Shown here: one piece after another, positions 49,415 through 63,989 of the stretch
How positions within the stretch are numbered: position 1 is the first letter of the stretch
Layout: every line of letters starts with the position of its first letter
Assembly: GCA_964291415.2 (NCBI GenBank)
Contig: OZ219918.1
Span: 224,001 to 288,000, forward strand
Length of the DNA: 64,000 bases
Source: Alphaproteobacteria bacterium
GTDB lineage: Bacteria > Pseudomonadota > Alphaproteobacteria > SP197
Reading direction: 5' to 3'
Notes under the pieces: model-generated
The model's input: the letters and a program-made list of their open reading frames with translations, nothing else
Databases searched by the model: none
Told to the model about the DNA's origin: nothing
Position numbers and translations under genes: made by a program

Positions 49415-49918
49415 GTGACTGATATCGTGGTGCACGGGAAGGGAAGCGCGCGCTTTGGCGCCTGCGAGTTTCGCTGTGCGCTCGGTTCTGCCGGTATCGT
49501 CGATCGAAAGGTGGAGGGGGACGGCGGCACTCCGGCCGGAGTGTGGCCACTCAGAAGGGTGCTCTTCAGGCCCGACCGGGAGGTGCGGCCCGAGTGTTCG
49601 CTGCCGGTATCGGCGATCACGCCGACGGACGGGTGGTGCGACGACCCCCGGCACGACGACTACAACAGGCCGGTTTCCGTGCCCTTTGCCGGAAGCCACG
49701 AAGTCATGTGGCGCCGTGACCATCTCTACGACCTCGTCATCATCGTCGGATTCAACGACGATCCGCCGCTTGCGGGCGCCGGCAGCGCCATCTTCGTGCA
49801 CCTGGCATCGGCCGATCGTGCGCCGACCGCCGGATGCGTTGCCTTTGCACGCGAAGACCTCCTGACGATTCTTCCGGGCCTCGACCGGACGAGCGCCCTC
49901 GTCGTGCGTCATTCGTAG
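49415..49918 (+). CDS. L,D-transpeptidase (YkuD) family protein
   Basis: KVEGDGGTPAG, GWCDDP..YN, GSAIFVH..PTAGCVA. Confidence 0.9.
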   Translation: MTDIVVHGKGSARFGACEFRCALGSAGIVDRKVEGDGGTPAGVWPLRRVLFRPDREVRPECSLPVSAITPTDGWCDDPRHDDYNRPVSVPFAGSHEVMWRRDHLYDLVIIVGFNDDPPLAGAGSAIFVHLASADRAPTAGCVAFAREDLLTILPGLDRTSALVVRHS

Positions 49919-50262
49919 CCGTGGATTTCCCGCCAGTTGACGGGCTCGACGACGATCACCGCCTTCGCGAATTCGGCGCGGTAGACCATCCAGGTGCCGT
50001 TGGGCAGCCAGATGCCGTCACCGGGTTCAAGATCAAACGTTCCCTCGCGGGTCTCGAGACTGAGCGTGCCCTCGAGGATGTACATGTACTCGTCGTAGAG
50101 AACCGTCCACTCCATGTCGCAGTTCTCGAAGAGGCCGATCGACGCTCCGAACGACTGGCTCTCCTTCGTCGAGACGTCACGCGAGACGGCGATGGTCCCT
50201 GGAGGGCCGCCGATCTGATTGAATACGCGTTCGGATGGCCGGACACGGCGGATGGCTGGCAT
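49909..50262 (-). CDS. EutQ-like cupin
   Basis: EWTVLYDEYMYILEG..PGDGIWLPNG. Confidence 0.82.
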   Translation of the reverse strand: MPAIRRVRPSERVFNQIGGPPGTIAVSRDVSTKESQSFGASIGLFENCDMEWTVLYDEYMYILEGTLSLETREGTFDLEPGDGIWLPNGTWMVYRAEFAKAVIVVEPVNWREIHGYE

Positions 50263-50267
50263 GACGG

Positions 50268-51227
50268 TTACCTCTTCTCTGGAAGGTTCGAAAGGTGCGG
50301 GCCGGTGAACCCCTTCGCCACATCTCCCCCGGCTGCCGGACCGGCCGCCGGCTCGATATCGCCGAGGCGCACAGGCTCGATGGCCTGGCTGCGCAGATCG
50401 ATCTCCCGGCGTGAACGCTGTGGCAGGCCGTCGCGCGGTGGCTCGAGCAGACGATGGGGGTCGTCACCGTTGACGAAGCCGAGATAGGGGCCGCCGAAGT
50501 CGTAGCCGATGAGGCGGGCAAGCCTCTCGTCGTAAGTCCGGGCGACGTCCGGAGGATTGGCCAGGTACTGGTTTTCTTCCTGGCGCAGCCAGCTCCAGCT
50601 GTACTGCAGGGCAAGGCCGGTCCTGACGGCATTGGAACGGTTGGTGCCGCCGCCATGCCAGACACCGCCCGTGTAGAGCAGCACCGAACCGGCCGGCATC
50701 TCGACGGGAACCACCTCGTCTGTCCTCGCAAGGCGATCGTGGTCCCACCGGTGGCTGCCCGGAACGATGCACGTCCCGCCGTTTGCGGCGGTGAAGTCGG
50801 TGAGCGCCCACATGGTGGCGATAACCATGGGAGGAGAGGGGTGGCGCACCGGATAGATGCTGCCGTCACGGTGCAGTCCCTGGGCATCGGCTCCGGGTTC
50901 GAGGTGCATGATGCCGGAAAAGTTGAGCTGCCAGTTGGGCGTGTAGGGCGTGAACATCCTTTCGACGAGATCCATGACGACGGGCGCCAGCACGAGGTCG
51001 CGTGCCGCCGCCGATCGGGCAAGGACGCCGCCGAGCCGCCTTGTGTGGCGTCCCAGGAACTCGTCGTGTCCCAGGGGTGCTGCGGCGATGTGGGGCGCCA
51101 GTTCGCCGAGGGCCCGTTGCGTCGTGTCCGGGGCAAGGCGGCTCACCACCAGATAGCCGTTCTCCTGGAAGAACTCGTGGAGAACATCCCCCGGCGTGGA
51201 GGGTTCGAAATCGGCAAGGGACGTCAT
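50268..51227 (-). CDS. Phytanoyl-CoA dioxygenase (PhyH) family protein
   Basis: QGLHRD, DFTAANGGT..PGSH, WHGGG, WLRQEENQYL. Confidence 0.92.
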   Translation of the reverse strand: MTSLADFEPSTPGDVLHEFFQENGYLVVSRLAPDTTQRALGELAPHIAAAPLGHDEFLGRHTRRLGGVLARSAAARDLVLAPVVMDLVERMFTPYTPNWQLNFSGIMHLEPGADAQGLHRDGSIYPVRHPSPPMVIATMWALTDFTAANGGTCIVPGSHRWDHDRLARTDEVVPVEMPAGSVLLYTGGVWHGGGTNRSNAVRTGLALQYSWSWLRQEENQYLANPPDVARTYDERLARLIGYDFGGPYLGFVNGDDPHRLLEPPRDGLPQRSRREIDLRSQAIEPVRLGDIEPAAGPAAGGDVAKGFTGPHLSNLPEKR

Positions 51228-51499
51228 GGCGCACCCGTCATCGTGACCACCGGCAACGATCCCGCTCCGCCGCCGCCTGTCGTCACGCCCTGCCGTTTCG
51301 TCGCTTGCGGGCTTGCAACACGGCCGCGTGCCGCCAGGATCGCTTTCCGGCACACAGAATTGTCAATGCGGATGGCGCCCCTAGTCATCGGCCCGGCAAC
51401 GGGGTCCCGTCACCCGCCGGCAGCGCGCGCGTAGCGACCGGGAGTGACAGCGGCGTATCACCTGACCGGGATGTTCCACAGCCATGGCGTGACCCCTCG

Positions 51500-51680
51500 C
51501 GACTTCGACAACAAGTGTAGGGCATCGGCATGTTGCCATGCCACGACAATCCTTGAAGACGGTATCAGCCGGTGTTGTCTCGTCACCTGTTGCCGCCTGC
51601 CGCGCGGGGACACGGTTCTGTCGAGACGGAGGTTGGCGCCAGCCGACGGATATCGTTGTCGCATCGTACGTGGGACCACG
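51500..51680 (-). pseudogene. Degenerate IS5-family transposase C-terminal fragment
   Basis: YDA..PSRQNRVP..(RQHRL)..FKDCRGMAT.RCPT resembles the IS5 C-terminal YDA..PSRKNR..LKDWRRIATRYDRC region. Confidence 0.4.
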
Positions 51681-51799
51681 TACCTCCAGGCGATCACCAA
51701 GATCTGCACCCGGAACACGAAGATCCCGGGCACAGTTACTGATGACGTCAGCCGATGAGGCCACCCTGCCCGACGACGGGACGATGCCTTCAAGCCACA

Positions 51800-51992
51800 A
51801 GCGAAAACCCTGGACGTTCGCGGTCTTGATATCCGGGACCGTGTTGTTCGCCCGCATCGCGTGCCCGTCTGCGACAGCGGCTGAAACCGCGACATTCACA
51901 CCCAGGCGCGCGGCAGCGAGGCGGCGGCTCAAGCCTCCGGGCACCGCCTCGTGAACCCAAACCCGAAGGTCAAGGGAAGGCGCTCTCGACAT
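51800..51992 (-). pseudogene. Degenerate IS630-family transposase N-terminal (HTH) fragment
   Basis: MSRAPSLDLRVWVHEAVPGGLSRRLAAARLGV matches IS630 N-termini (SxDLRxRV..SRRxAAARFGV); no DDE domain follows. Confidence 0.7.
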
Positions 51993-52365
51993 GTCTGCCG
52001 AACCTCGTTCCCGGCAGACAGTGTGAATCACAAACCAGACGCCTTGTCAGCCGATCCCCGGGCTGACGAAGCCCGCCGCCAGATGAACTTGGGGTCGTCC
52101 GGGACGCTCCAAAAAAAGCGCCCGTTCTCCCCAGTTTTGGGGAAGCGCGAAGGGAAACAGTCCGACTATCGTCTGCGCCACTTTCAGCGGGGCCCTCACG
52201 AATCGATCGCAAGGCCCGCCGCGATCCAGGGGAGGGCCCGGGGTGTGATTTCGAAGATATCGCGGAGCGGAGGGACGCCGGAATCCGGCGCATCGCCTGT
52301 CTCGCCCGTGGTTGCCGTGGTGGAGATTTCGCTCATCACGCATGGGGCTGCCGGGACGTCGTGCG

Positions 52366-61188: not shown

Positions 61189-61626
61189 GATTGACCTCCC
61201 TTTGAATACGATTTGGATACAGACTGTAACCTTAACCCGGTCCGGGAGAAAGGCCAGTCGGGACAGTTTGACCTTTCAACGCGCAAGGCCCCGGGAACGA
61301 TGGTTTCGGCCGGGCTGGCCCTTGCGCCGAAGTCCGAGCCGGACAAGCCCCCTCGAAAGGGTCAGGCCGCCTTCGTTCTGGATTCTTTCGAGGTCGAGGA
61401 CGAATGGTTCGCGCTCGAGTTGGTCGCCTTCCAGGTGTTGTCCGGCGAAGGACCGCCTTCCGCGATCGCCGCGGAAGCAATCGAGACGATCAGGCGCTTG
61501 CGACTCAATGATGAGGAATGCTGTGGTGCGTGCGCCGAATACGCCGAGGATTACTGGCGCGAGGAAATCACAATCGCCGATGTGCGAAAAAATGGGGGAT
61601 TGTATACGCAACTTGACAGAATCGAC

Positions 61627-61655
61627 TTGACATCCAATGGTGTTATCGATATGAA
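61627..61655 (+). promoter_or_regulatory. Candidate sigma70 promoter of tnpB
   Basis: TTGACA-N17-TATGAA in the left end; GGAG RBS before ATG 61697. Confidence 0.45.
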
Positions 61656-61696
61656 TTCGTGTGGTAAATCAGTGCTCGCAATACCGGAGTCCCCGC

Positions 61697-62896
61697 ATGT
61701 CGTCCTCTGTCACCTATCGACAGATCACCTTTCGCCTGCTGCCCGAGAAGCGCAGCACCTGGCGGCGGCTGGAGGCCATGCTCGACACGCAGCGCTGTCT
61801 CTACAACGCGGCGCTGGAAGAACGGATCGACTGCTACCGCAAGACCGGCAAGTCGCTCACCTACTTCGATCAGGCGAAGTCCCTGACCCTTTGCCGCAAG
61901 GCGCTGCCGGACATGGCAGCGGTGCCGGTGGCCATTCAGCGCGGGACGCTCAAGCGCCTCGATCATGCCTTCAAGGGCTTCTTCCAGCGGGTGAAGCAGG
62001 GTGGGGCCGGGTTCCCCCGGTTCCAGGGACGCCGGCACTTCAACAGCCTTTCCGTGGTCTCCGGCGTCAGGGTCGAGGGCAGTCGCCTGCGCATCCCCGG
62101 CCTGGGCTGGCTGACCATCCGCCGCCGGGGCGGCAATCCCTGGCCGCAGGGCACGCCGGTGAGTGCGGTCCTCAAGCGCGAGGAGGGACGCTGGAAGGCT
62201 GTGGTGTGCCATGCGGTGTCGCTGCCGGAAGGGGACGACAACGGCCATGCCGTCGGCGTGGACATGAATGCGGGCCAGGTGGCGACCTCGGACGGGGAGA
62301 TCCTGCGCCTGGAGAGGAGCCGTCGTCTCGAGGCCCGTGCCCGGCGCTACGCCAAGCAGCTGGCGCGGCAGCGCCGTGGCAGCAGGCGGCGGGAGAAGAC
62401 GCGGCGGCGTCTGGCGAAGACCACCCGGCACATGGCCATGAAGCGCCATGACTGGCAGCACCACGTCAGCCGCCGGTTGGCGGATGCGGCGGGAACGGTG
62501 GTGGTCGAGGATCTCAAGGTCCGCACCATGACCCGCAGCGCCAGGGGCACGAAGGAGGAGCCGGGACGTCACGTGCGCTCCAAGGCGGGTCTCAACCGTG
62601 TCATCCTGGAGACGGGCTGGTCGTCGTTCCGGAGAATGCTGGACTACAAGGTTCACCGCGTCATCGCGGTGAACCCGGCCTACAGCAGCCAGACCTGTGC
62701 AGCGTGCGGCGTCACGAGCGCCCAATCACGCAGGACGCGGGACCTGTTTCAATGCGTGGCGTGCGGCCATGCGGATCACGCCGACCTCAATGCAGCGGCG
62801 AACATTCTGGCCTCGGGGACTGAGGCATCTGCGCGGGGAGGTTGCCGGGTTGCCGGGCCTGTGAACCGCGAAATCGATCAGAGGATGGCAGCATGA
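61697..62896 (+). CDS. tnpB: RNA-guided endonuclease TnpB (399 aa)
   Basis: FRLLP..RCLYNAAL N-terminus, GFPRF, RuvC D (GVDMN), E (VEDL), D (HADLNAAANI), zinc finger CAAC..CVAC. Confidence 0.95.
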   Translation: MSSSVTYRQITFRLLPEKRSTWRRLEAMLDTQRCLYNAALEERIDCYRKTGKSLTYFDQAKSLTLCRKALPDMAAVPVAIQRGTLKRLDHAFKGFFQRVKQGGAGFPRFQGRRHFNSLSVVSGVRVEGSRLRIPGLGWLTIRRRGGNPWPQGTPVSAVLKREEGRWKAVVCHAVSLPEGDDNGHAVGVDMNAGQVATSDGEILRLERSRRLEARARRYAKQLARQRRGSRRREKTRRRLAKTTRHMAMKRHDWQHHVSRRLADAAGTVVVEDLKVRTMTRSARGTKEEPGRHVRSKAGLNRVILETGWSSFRRMLDYKVHRVIAVNPAYSSQTCAACGVTSAQSRRTRDLFQCVACGHADHADLNAAANILASGTEASARGGCRVAGPVNREIDQRMAA

Positions 62897-62943
62897 CGCT
62901 GTCAACTTCTCGATATAAGTCCCAAAAAATGCTCCTTCGTTGC
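62790..62943 (+). ncRNA. Putative omegaRNA (reRNA) scaffold overlapping the tnpB 3' end, plus flanking guide
   Basis: Only 27 nt between stop and right end; hairpin GCCTCGG-GGA-CTGAGGC (62810-62826) and CGCGG/CCGCG pairing (62832-62870); boundaries inferred from TnpB biology. Confidence 0.5.
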
Positions 62944-63149: not shown

Positions 63150-63989
63150 TCAGCGGAACATCAAGGAGCCGCTGCGTTGTTCGATGGCGTCGGAGACGAC
63201 GATGCCACCGCGAAAACGGTCATATGTAGTATCCAGATAGTGGTACTGGAGCGCTTTCAACTGGCCGCCATAGCGCTGCCGAAGGCCTCCTGCGGCGGGC
63301 TGTACGTGAACATTGCTCACGTGGCCTGTGCAGTAGGCGTGGCAGGCAACGGGATAGAGCAGCGCGGAGCACAGGATATCGCAGACTTGGAGGCCGGCGT
63401 GGTTGTCGCTGTGGCCGAAGGTTGGAAGTTCGACGGTCCGAGGGTACGCCCGGGCAGTTTGGCTGAACTTCTGGGTGAAGATCGAGTGGGACACCTTGAC
63501 GTTCTTGAACTTGTTGCGGCTGTCGGCGATGCATGCGCCGACCTCGTTCACGTGGGACAGATAGTGGTCGAAGTAGGTGCAGATGCCTTGGATCGAAGCC
63601 GTGTAAACGGACGTGGGAACGAAGGGCATTCCGATGCCCTTCACGCTGATGCGCGCGACCAACCGAACGTCGTGGCGCCACAGCATTCCGAAAATGCGGT
63701 CCAGGAATCCGACTGCGTGACGTCGCTGACGAGCGTTGCCGCGTAACGCGTTGTTCCGGATATCCGCCCCCTTGATCTCCGGCAGGATCCTGTCAAGGAA
63801 TCTGGCCGATGGGTACGGCAAGTTGGGGAAGTACCGATACTTCAGGTCGAGGAAATCAGCGGTAAAGGCGAGGAGGTTTGCGGCTTCCGCGAAGAGTCCA
63901 CCGACGACCAGGACGGGTTGGTCGTTAGGCTGCGGCGGGTCGGACAGCGGTCCGAGGTCTCCCGCTTCGTCGATAAAGCAGATTCTCAT
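63150..63989 (-). CDS. DUF3800 domain-containing protein
   Basis: FIDEAGD N-terminus, EIKG, and GLQVCDIL (QxxD) motif. Confidence 0.85.
   Translation of the reverse strand: MRICFIDEAGDLGPLSDPPQPNDQPVLVVGGLFAEAANLLAFTADFLDLKYRYFPNLPYPSARFLDRILPEIKGADIRNNALRGNARQRRHAVGFLDRIFGMLWRHDVRLVARISVKGIGMPFVPTSVYTASIQGICTYFDHYLSHVNEVGACIADSRNKFKNVKVSHSIFTQKFSQTARAYPRTVELPTFGHSDNHAGLQVCDILCSALLYPVACHAYCTGHVSNVHVQPAAGGLRQRYGGQLKALQYHYLDTTYDRFRGGIVVSDAIEQRSGSLMFR

Follow-up and report, generated by a model that had tools for sequence, protein, structure and literature searches.

A TnpB gene between IS1595-type ends, with a predicted omegaRNA that reaches the tip of the element and a candidate single-base TAM

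The window, i.e., the whole 64,000-nucleotide stretch of alphaproteobacterial DNA that was analyzed (source genome G000), contains a 1329-bp unit (61595-62923) that is bracketed by an exact 8-bp duplication, AAAAAATG, at 61587 and 62924, and whose sole gene is tnpB. The ends of this unit are inverted repeats, the left one (61595..61619, + strand) of the IS1595 type and identical to the right one (62899..62923, - strand) at 17/25 positions, with a likeness that reaches to about 41 bp (26/41, both counts ungapped). Re-derivation from the letters of the window gave the same identities and the same shared pattern as those quoted in the original prediction. Among 200,000 random end pairs drawn from the window, an end match of 17/25 occurred at a frequency of 4e-5, one of 26/41 at 1e-5, and an exact 8-bp duplication at 4.5e-5, all three levels falling below 1/20,000.

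The unit interrupts a host gene, the remnant of which lies at 61351..61594 (+ strand), resumes briefly past 62931, and is 65% identical to a frame in genome G002. As claimed, removing the unit restores a reading frame: the empty site aligns without gaps to the G002 ortholog (ADVRKNAP compared to YVRRHAP), but the target is only a gene remnant, with roughly 80 codons compared to the 294-codon frame in G002 and a frameshift just past the insertion site. This remnant had no Pfam or NCBIfam match. Directly to the right of the element is a DUF3800 gene (63150-63989, - strand).

The tnpB gene (61697..62896, + strand) begins with ATG and encodes a protein of 399 residues that matches PF07282, PF01385, and NF040570, each above cut-off. 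These domains, together with an intact RuvC D-E-D triad (D189/E271/D363) and a C4 zinc finger, place it among the TnpB (OMEGA) nucleases, and the closest natural solved structure is that of ISDra2 TnpB (8H1J, E 4e-32). Arg82 occupies the position of ISDra2 Q80.

Five full-length copies of the element are present in the source genome, and, as anticipated in the original prediction, they share an identical first and last base while their flanks are unrelated and their duplications differ. The four other full-length copies are 92-97% identical to the one in the window, one of them being split by a 1.8-kb insertion, and a further truncated copy has the same boundaries. Perfect 8-bp duplications flank three of the five (AAAAAATG, ATCGACAA, and CTTCCTTT); the fourth has a 7-bp match (8 bp if its left end has lost a G), and the fifth a mere 4-bp overlap. 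The tnpB frame is uninterrupted in four of the full-length copies. In sequencing run X1, the element had a depth of approximately 150-600 and its flanks one of approximately 12, and loose ends occurred at its boundaries. Compared at the sequence level, the copies show an element that moves as a unit bounded by its inverted repeats and makes 8-bp duplications.

Several other sequences in the source genome belong to the same class of ends. A second tnpB element (C1:387806-389086, L007; 1281 bp) encodes a TnpB that is 39% identical and has a 7/8 duplication, a G at position -1, and the pseudoknot described below; it is inserted next to a putative mnmG/gidA gene. Orphan right ends occur at C1:829121 and C1:1057196, a degenerate remnant at C4:147769-147886, and a small inverted-repeat element at C2:958951-959097. 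The 1.8-kb insertion (C2:85682-87486) splits the tnpB of the copy at C2:84502, and related sequence is found at C1:121838-123053.

To place this TnpB among its relatives, 69 GTDB loci, 80/179 metagenome loci, 9 viral-contig loci, and the copies within the genus were gathered, and a tree was built from 112 uninterrupted proteins. All 83 proteins with at least one IS1595-type end fell on one side of a single branch, which comprises 91 rows (SH-aLRT 89, not starred); the remaining 8 of these rows consist of 5 without a scored end and 3 that are cut by contig ends. The 21 rows across this branch showed no IS1595-type end; most of them have an IS605-type right end, and two lie beside a Y1 TnpA (2/27 frames scanned). 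Each catalytic residue is retained in 90/91 members of the lineage, and an Arg occupies the ISDra2 Q80 position in 89/91 members compared to a Gln in 20/21 outgroup proteins; the members are related, so that neither the Arg count nor the pseudoknot counts given below are independent. Judged by record titles, members occur in Alpha- and Gammaproteobacteria, Dehalococcoidia, Thermodesulfobacteriota, and Spirochaetia, and one viral contig (L393) carries a complete element with a perfect duplication. The best relatives from a plasmid search reached 38% or less. One member of the lineage (L041:5247-5342, genome G051) is a single copy in its genome, has no inverted ends, and is followed by two 30-bp direct repeats separated by a 36-bp spacer with an IS1595-end-like motif; one possibility is that this TnpB has been domesticated and that the repeats form a CRISPR-like mini-array.

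A search of the source genome for Y1 transposases gave 0 matches. The same genome contains two IS1595 transposases above cut-off, in adjacent elements (C2:46358-49518, with its transposase at C2:48464-49444, and 49528-51995) that each carry passenger genes and whose ends are near-identical to those of the tnpB element. The left ends of three tnpB copies match the IS1595 end at C2:49518 at 21-23/25 positions (21/25 for the copy in the window, 22-23/25 for the others). With identical boundaries and differing duplications among the copies, one TnpB lineage bound to such ends, and matching IS1595 elements but no Y1 transposase in the source genome, the proposed capture of TnpB by IS1595-type DDE ends is supported. 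The two IS1595 elements (C2:46358-51995, L011) stand head to head, 9 bp apart, and similar pairs occur in genomes G004 and G049; their passenger genes had no NCBIfam match, and one is a 464-residue lipoprotein-like frame.

IS1595 elements are characterized by inverted repeats that begin with GG and by A/T-rich 8-bp duplications, as described in two earlier reports (PMC8101967, PMC12561309). The GG-starting repeats and variable 8-bp duplication of the tnpB element assign it to the IS1595 family as a non-autonomous member; a DDE_Tnp_IS1595 transposase gene was found neither inside the window element nor inside any related element, so that it falls outside the definition of an autonomous IS1595. 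Elements carrying both genes were also sought. Among the 69 GTDB loci, the only IS1595 match was at L036, where it is a separate neighboring element; there were 0 among the 80 metagenome loci; and among 81 fetched IS1595 loci, a TnpB match was limited to L376, where it is partial and lies outside the delineated elements. From the latter set, 30 autonomous, TnpB-free IS1595 elements could be delineated as controls. These have the same class of ends, near-perfect in their identity to one another (20-25/25), and, like the TnpB elements, favor A/T at positions 2, 6, and 7 of the duplication. IS1595 is present in 18/23 genomes of the genus and in 9/10 other host genomes; in G013 (complete, on one contig), G016, and G047, TnpB elements are present and no IS1595 match was found. 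Since no element carries both genes, the ends are shared with IS1595, and IS1595 co-occurs with the TnpB elements, it is very likely that an IS1595 DDE transposase encoded elsewhere mobilizes the tnpB element in trans.

The 3' end of tnpB overlaps a predicted omegaRNA scaffold of 114 nt (62810..62923, + strand), which is composed of a hairpin (62810-62826, loop 62815-62821), a stem (62832-62836/62866-62870), and a terminal stem-loop. The hairpin loop exposes GGGACU, the complement of the six terminal bases of the element (AGUCCC), such that 62816-62821 is predicted to pair with 62918-62923 in a pseudoknot, one strand of which is thus also the tip of the right inverted repeat. Identified independently of the terminus, the loop was present in 84/91 distinct right ends, and in 70 of these 84 it pairs with its own terminus at six (45) or five (25) of six positions. 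The two strands covary (GGGACT/AGTCCC, GGGATT/AATCCC, GGGAAT/ATTCCC, and GGGACA/TGTCCC). Of 60 elements, 37 have a loop that matches the right end better, 2 have one that matches the left end better, and 21 are ties, and when 25 distinct loop/terminus pairs were shuffled, only 2/10,000 shuffles reached the observed pairing. In alignments of 22 and 21 sequences, which are related to each other, the pseudoknot helix is 95-96% paired, compared to 30-42% for the whole structure in slid controls. An omegaRNA with a pseudoknot at the right end, a further hallmark of TnpB, is thus recognized in this element by covariation alone. The scaffold had 0 Rfam matches at E<=1, 0 candidates passed in a scan of the element for promoters and terminators, and in RNA run X3 the element was covered as contigs only.

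Because the pseudoknot occupies the terminal six bases of the element, the guide is predicted to start within the duplication. The covariation makes us highly confident that the scaffold takes in the whole right repeat, the final base included, closing the pseudoknot, and that the guide would consist of the right duplication (62924..62931, + strand) plus the right flank. The predicted guide in the window (62924..62940, + strand) has a first 12 bases that are unique in the genome. The position of the pseudoknot allows the guide to begin at either the first or the second base of the duplication; the geometry of ISDra2, if it applies here, suggests that the first base would belong to the scaffold and that the guide would start at the second.

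A survey of insertion sites identified a one-sided bias in the base that directly precedes the left duplication (61587..61594, + strand), a sequence that itself differs among copies. In the window, this base is G61586 (+ strand), and over the 38 distinct insertions whose duplications match at 7/8 or better (25 pairs with weaker duplications being excluded), it is a G in 37, compared to 11/30 TnpB-free IS1595 elements (p 2.6e-8). The base preceding this G is a T in 20/38 insertions, and the mirror base on the right is a C in only 12/38. When all 94 distinct left ends are counted, 82 have a G at -1. In the TnpB-free controls, the corresponding counts are 11/30 on the left, 8/30 on the right, and 14/30 at either end. 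In three copies (C4:1339554-1340882 and C4:883416-883589 of the source genome, and L069), the right flank lacks the first 3-4 expected bases of the duplication, and a G still stands nine bases before the left end.

Addition of the G during insertion was considered and ruled out, as the G002 ortholog of the host gene already has it, indicating that the G predates the insertion. An apparently empty site is also present in run X1, on one contig of 397 bases (depth 11.8) that is identical to the window over 356 bases (61229-61584) and then jumps from 61584 to 62923. This single empty allele is one base shorter than expected from precise excision and, by reading of the joint table, is without G61586. 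Arg commonly reads G. On the strength of the insertion-site comparison, we consider it likely that the TAM is minimal, namely a 5'-(T)G-3' directly ahead of the duplication or, should the guide start at the second base, 5'-(T)G[A/C/T]-3'.

In light of the data presented above, the likely function of the module, judged from its sequence features, is to cut emptied sites so that the element is retained. An empty site, consisting of the G, one copy of the duplication, and the flank, would offer both the TAM and a full match to the guide and would be cut. At an occupied site, the right junction would be safe because the terminal C of the element stands where a G is needed, and the left junction because only 7-8 guide bases match, fewer than the approximately 12 needed by ISDra2. 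As to how the bias itself arises, we somewhat favor a scenario in which the transposase inserts regardless of the G, and copies with a neighboring G are regained or multiplied through cut-and-copy repair at emptied sites while the others are lost; the G would then be one-sided because only G-adjacent, and hence protected, copies survive. Retention of this kind requires scarless rejoining of IS1595 donor sites, which is not known to occur. Slippage between the duplications is one route by which empty sites could arise. An IS1595 member has been reported, by inverse PCR, to form a circle (PMC12561309), and for IS605 elements it has been shown that TnpB cuts the emptied site, that the element is then recovered from the sister chromosome, and that retention results (bioRxiv 10.1101/2023.03.14.532601). 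Taking the parts together, we regard as reasonably probable the overall reading that this is a non-autonomous IS1595-type element whose sole cargo is a putatively active TnpB-omegaRNA module, retained through G-dependent cutting.

The principal difficulty for retention comes from a family of tnpB-free MITEs with IS1595-type ends (174-298 bp), seen in the source genome alone among 23 genomes. A G precedes the same end in 4/4 copies (C2:344481-344778, C4:1169275-1169572, C4:883416-883589, and C4:560976-561151), one of which is without a clean duplication. In the two long copies, short direct repeats enclose an insert that contains an antisense piece of the element's omegaRNA. The possibility that the MITEs are standalone omegaRNAs was rejected, as the RNA model finds nothing beyond this antisense fragment of the long pair; none of the four gave a sense omegaRNA match (best E 0.08). 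Since the MITEs are free of tnpB and no sense omegaRNA was detected in them, retention by an element's own guide fails to explain their G, and since they share this G, explanations in which it is chosen at insertion stay alive.

One such explanation is that TnpB, with or without its RNA, contacts the IS1595 transpososome at the right end and sets the orientation of insertion, such that a G directly precedes the left duplication, both in cis and in trans. The G in 4/4 MITEs of a TnpB-bearing genome would fit, as would its occurrence beside perfect duplications, its unchanged spacing to the left end in several copies whose duplications are shortened or degraded, and the value of 37/38, which is extreme for selection after the fact. 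Against this, autonomous IS1595 elements in TnpB-bearing genomes are without the G bias (11/30), contact between TnpB and the transposase is purely hypothetical, and the nuclease site is intact. Moreover, because the flanks of the copies in the source genome are unrelated, insertion is not RNA-guided. We therefore regard it as doubtful that TnpB chooses the target, and equally doubtful that it acts as a partner of the IS1595 transposase that steers insertion, including that of tnpB-free elements in trans, to a one-base TAM and then guards the site.

Alternatively, the G could reflect the transposase itself, if elements with unequal ends are inserted in a fixed orientation beside a G and TnpB is merely a passenger. 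The MITEs both share the G and have unequal ends, and the autonomous controls, being near-symmetric (20-25/25), differ from the TnpB elements in this respect. However, a preference for G at one end should appear at either end of symmetric elements, and it did so in only 14/30; the G also persists across many end types and several phyla, and a functional nuclease is indicated by the pseudoknot, the catalytic triad, and the fixed Arg. These points make a passenger role for TnpB unlikely. We also considered a conventional IS605/IS1341 element, with TTGAC as its target and GTCAA as its right end, nested in an IS1595 miniature, with a scaffold ending at GTCAA (62905) and the outer 18 repeat bases as the guide, but while the ends contain TTGAC and GTCAA and the remnant at C4:147769-147886 stops at GTCAA, TTGAC belongs to the IS1595 repeat itself and is missing from the ends of many relatives, the pseudoknot uses the terminal six bases, the IS605-type right end of the outgroup is absent, and the source genome has no Y1 transposase, so that this highly improbable nesting was rejected as largely refuted by the TTGAC within the repeat, the pseudoknot at the tip, and the missing Y1.

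Retention through G-dependent cutting, if correct, bears on a question that is posed as open in a 2026 review (PMC13565253), namely what an RNA-guided nuclease can offer to a DDE transposon that generates target duplications and lacks a fixed target. The suggested answer is that the TAM has shrunk to a G outside the duplication, that the duplication begins the guide, and that the terminal C confers self-protection. As the transposase, ends, nuclease, and RNA are all in one genome, this is directly testable. If the TAM is (T)G only, nucleases of 400 residues would target far more widely than ISDra2 TnpB (TTGAT). Should steering of the transposase prove true instead, this would be the first TnpB shown to shape the target choice of a DDE transposase, and likewise a compact nuclease with an almost unrestricted TAM.

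DDE-borne TnpBs, and solo TnpBs that would be mobile in trans, have been reported in prokaryotes since 2023, so that the phenomenon as such was already known. Altae-Tran et al. (2023, PMC10691335) describe, in the main text, six DDE-associated TnpB branches (DDE-1 to DDE-6) with inverted repeats and with solo TnpBs between the same ends. The element described here resembles them, as far as that account goes, in the inverted repeats that flank TnpB, in the position of the tnpB 3' end near the end of the element, and in solo copies for which mobility in trans is deduced. Those branches are, however, defined in that text by a transposase beside tnpB, and none is found inside any element of the IS1595-end lineage. 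The main text, as distinct from the supplement, names IS630 and has 0 occurrences of IS1595 and ISXO2, and the passages of it that were compared give no TAM, guide start, or pseudoknot for the DDE TnpBs. The TnpB-bearing DDE families named in the 2026 review are ISL2, IS630, and IS1031 (PMC13565253), and a link between TnpB and IS1595/ISXO2 was not found in the literature as searched by title and abstract, a scope that leaves most subscription papers outside. What is specific here, against an architecture that is known in outline, is the predicted one-base TAM and the apparent doubling of the element's tip as part of the guide RNA.

With respect to the classical hosts of TnpB, IS200/IS605 elements, including IS1341, have neither inverted repeats nor a target duplication according to the review (PMC13565253). 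The present element has both, its left flanks vary, and there are 0 Y1 transposases in the source genome; the repeats and duplication likewise set it apart from IS607, which has neither. The ISDra2 scaffold measures 116 nt, and its pseudoknot joins -2..-6 with -102..-106 (PMC10097598), to which the predicted scaffold is similar in its length of approximately 115 nt, its overlap with the end of the gene, and its pseudoknot of -1..-6 with -103..-108. The same study describes ISDra2 Q80 as contacting TAM base -2 and approximately 12 guide matches as being needed (PMC10097598). Unlike ISDra2 and IS605, the element has no Y1 transposase and no fixed 4-5-base target, and it has inverted ends and an 8-bp duplication; its candidate TAM is a single G that the transposase apparently does not select, and Q80 is replaced by Arg. 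It is like IS1595 passenger or non-autonomous elements in having ends near-identical to those of a resident IS1595, the same start of the repeats, and the same type of duplication, and unlike them in that it has no transposase and that its right end is predicted to serve as RNA, functionally fused to the cargo. Finally, it resembles Fanzors, at least as these are summarized in the review (PMC13565253), in that a duplication-making transposon carries an RNA-guided nuclease. In that summary, the 5' duplication of Fanzors is read as part of the TAM, the 3' copy is placed within the scaffold, and Fanzor1 is without a terminal pseudoknot. In the present element, by contrast, the sequence of the duplication varies, the predicted pseudoknot is retained, and the guide is predicted to start within the duplication.
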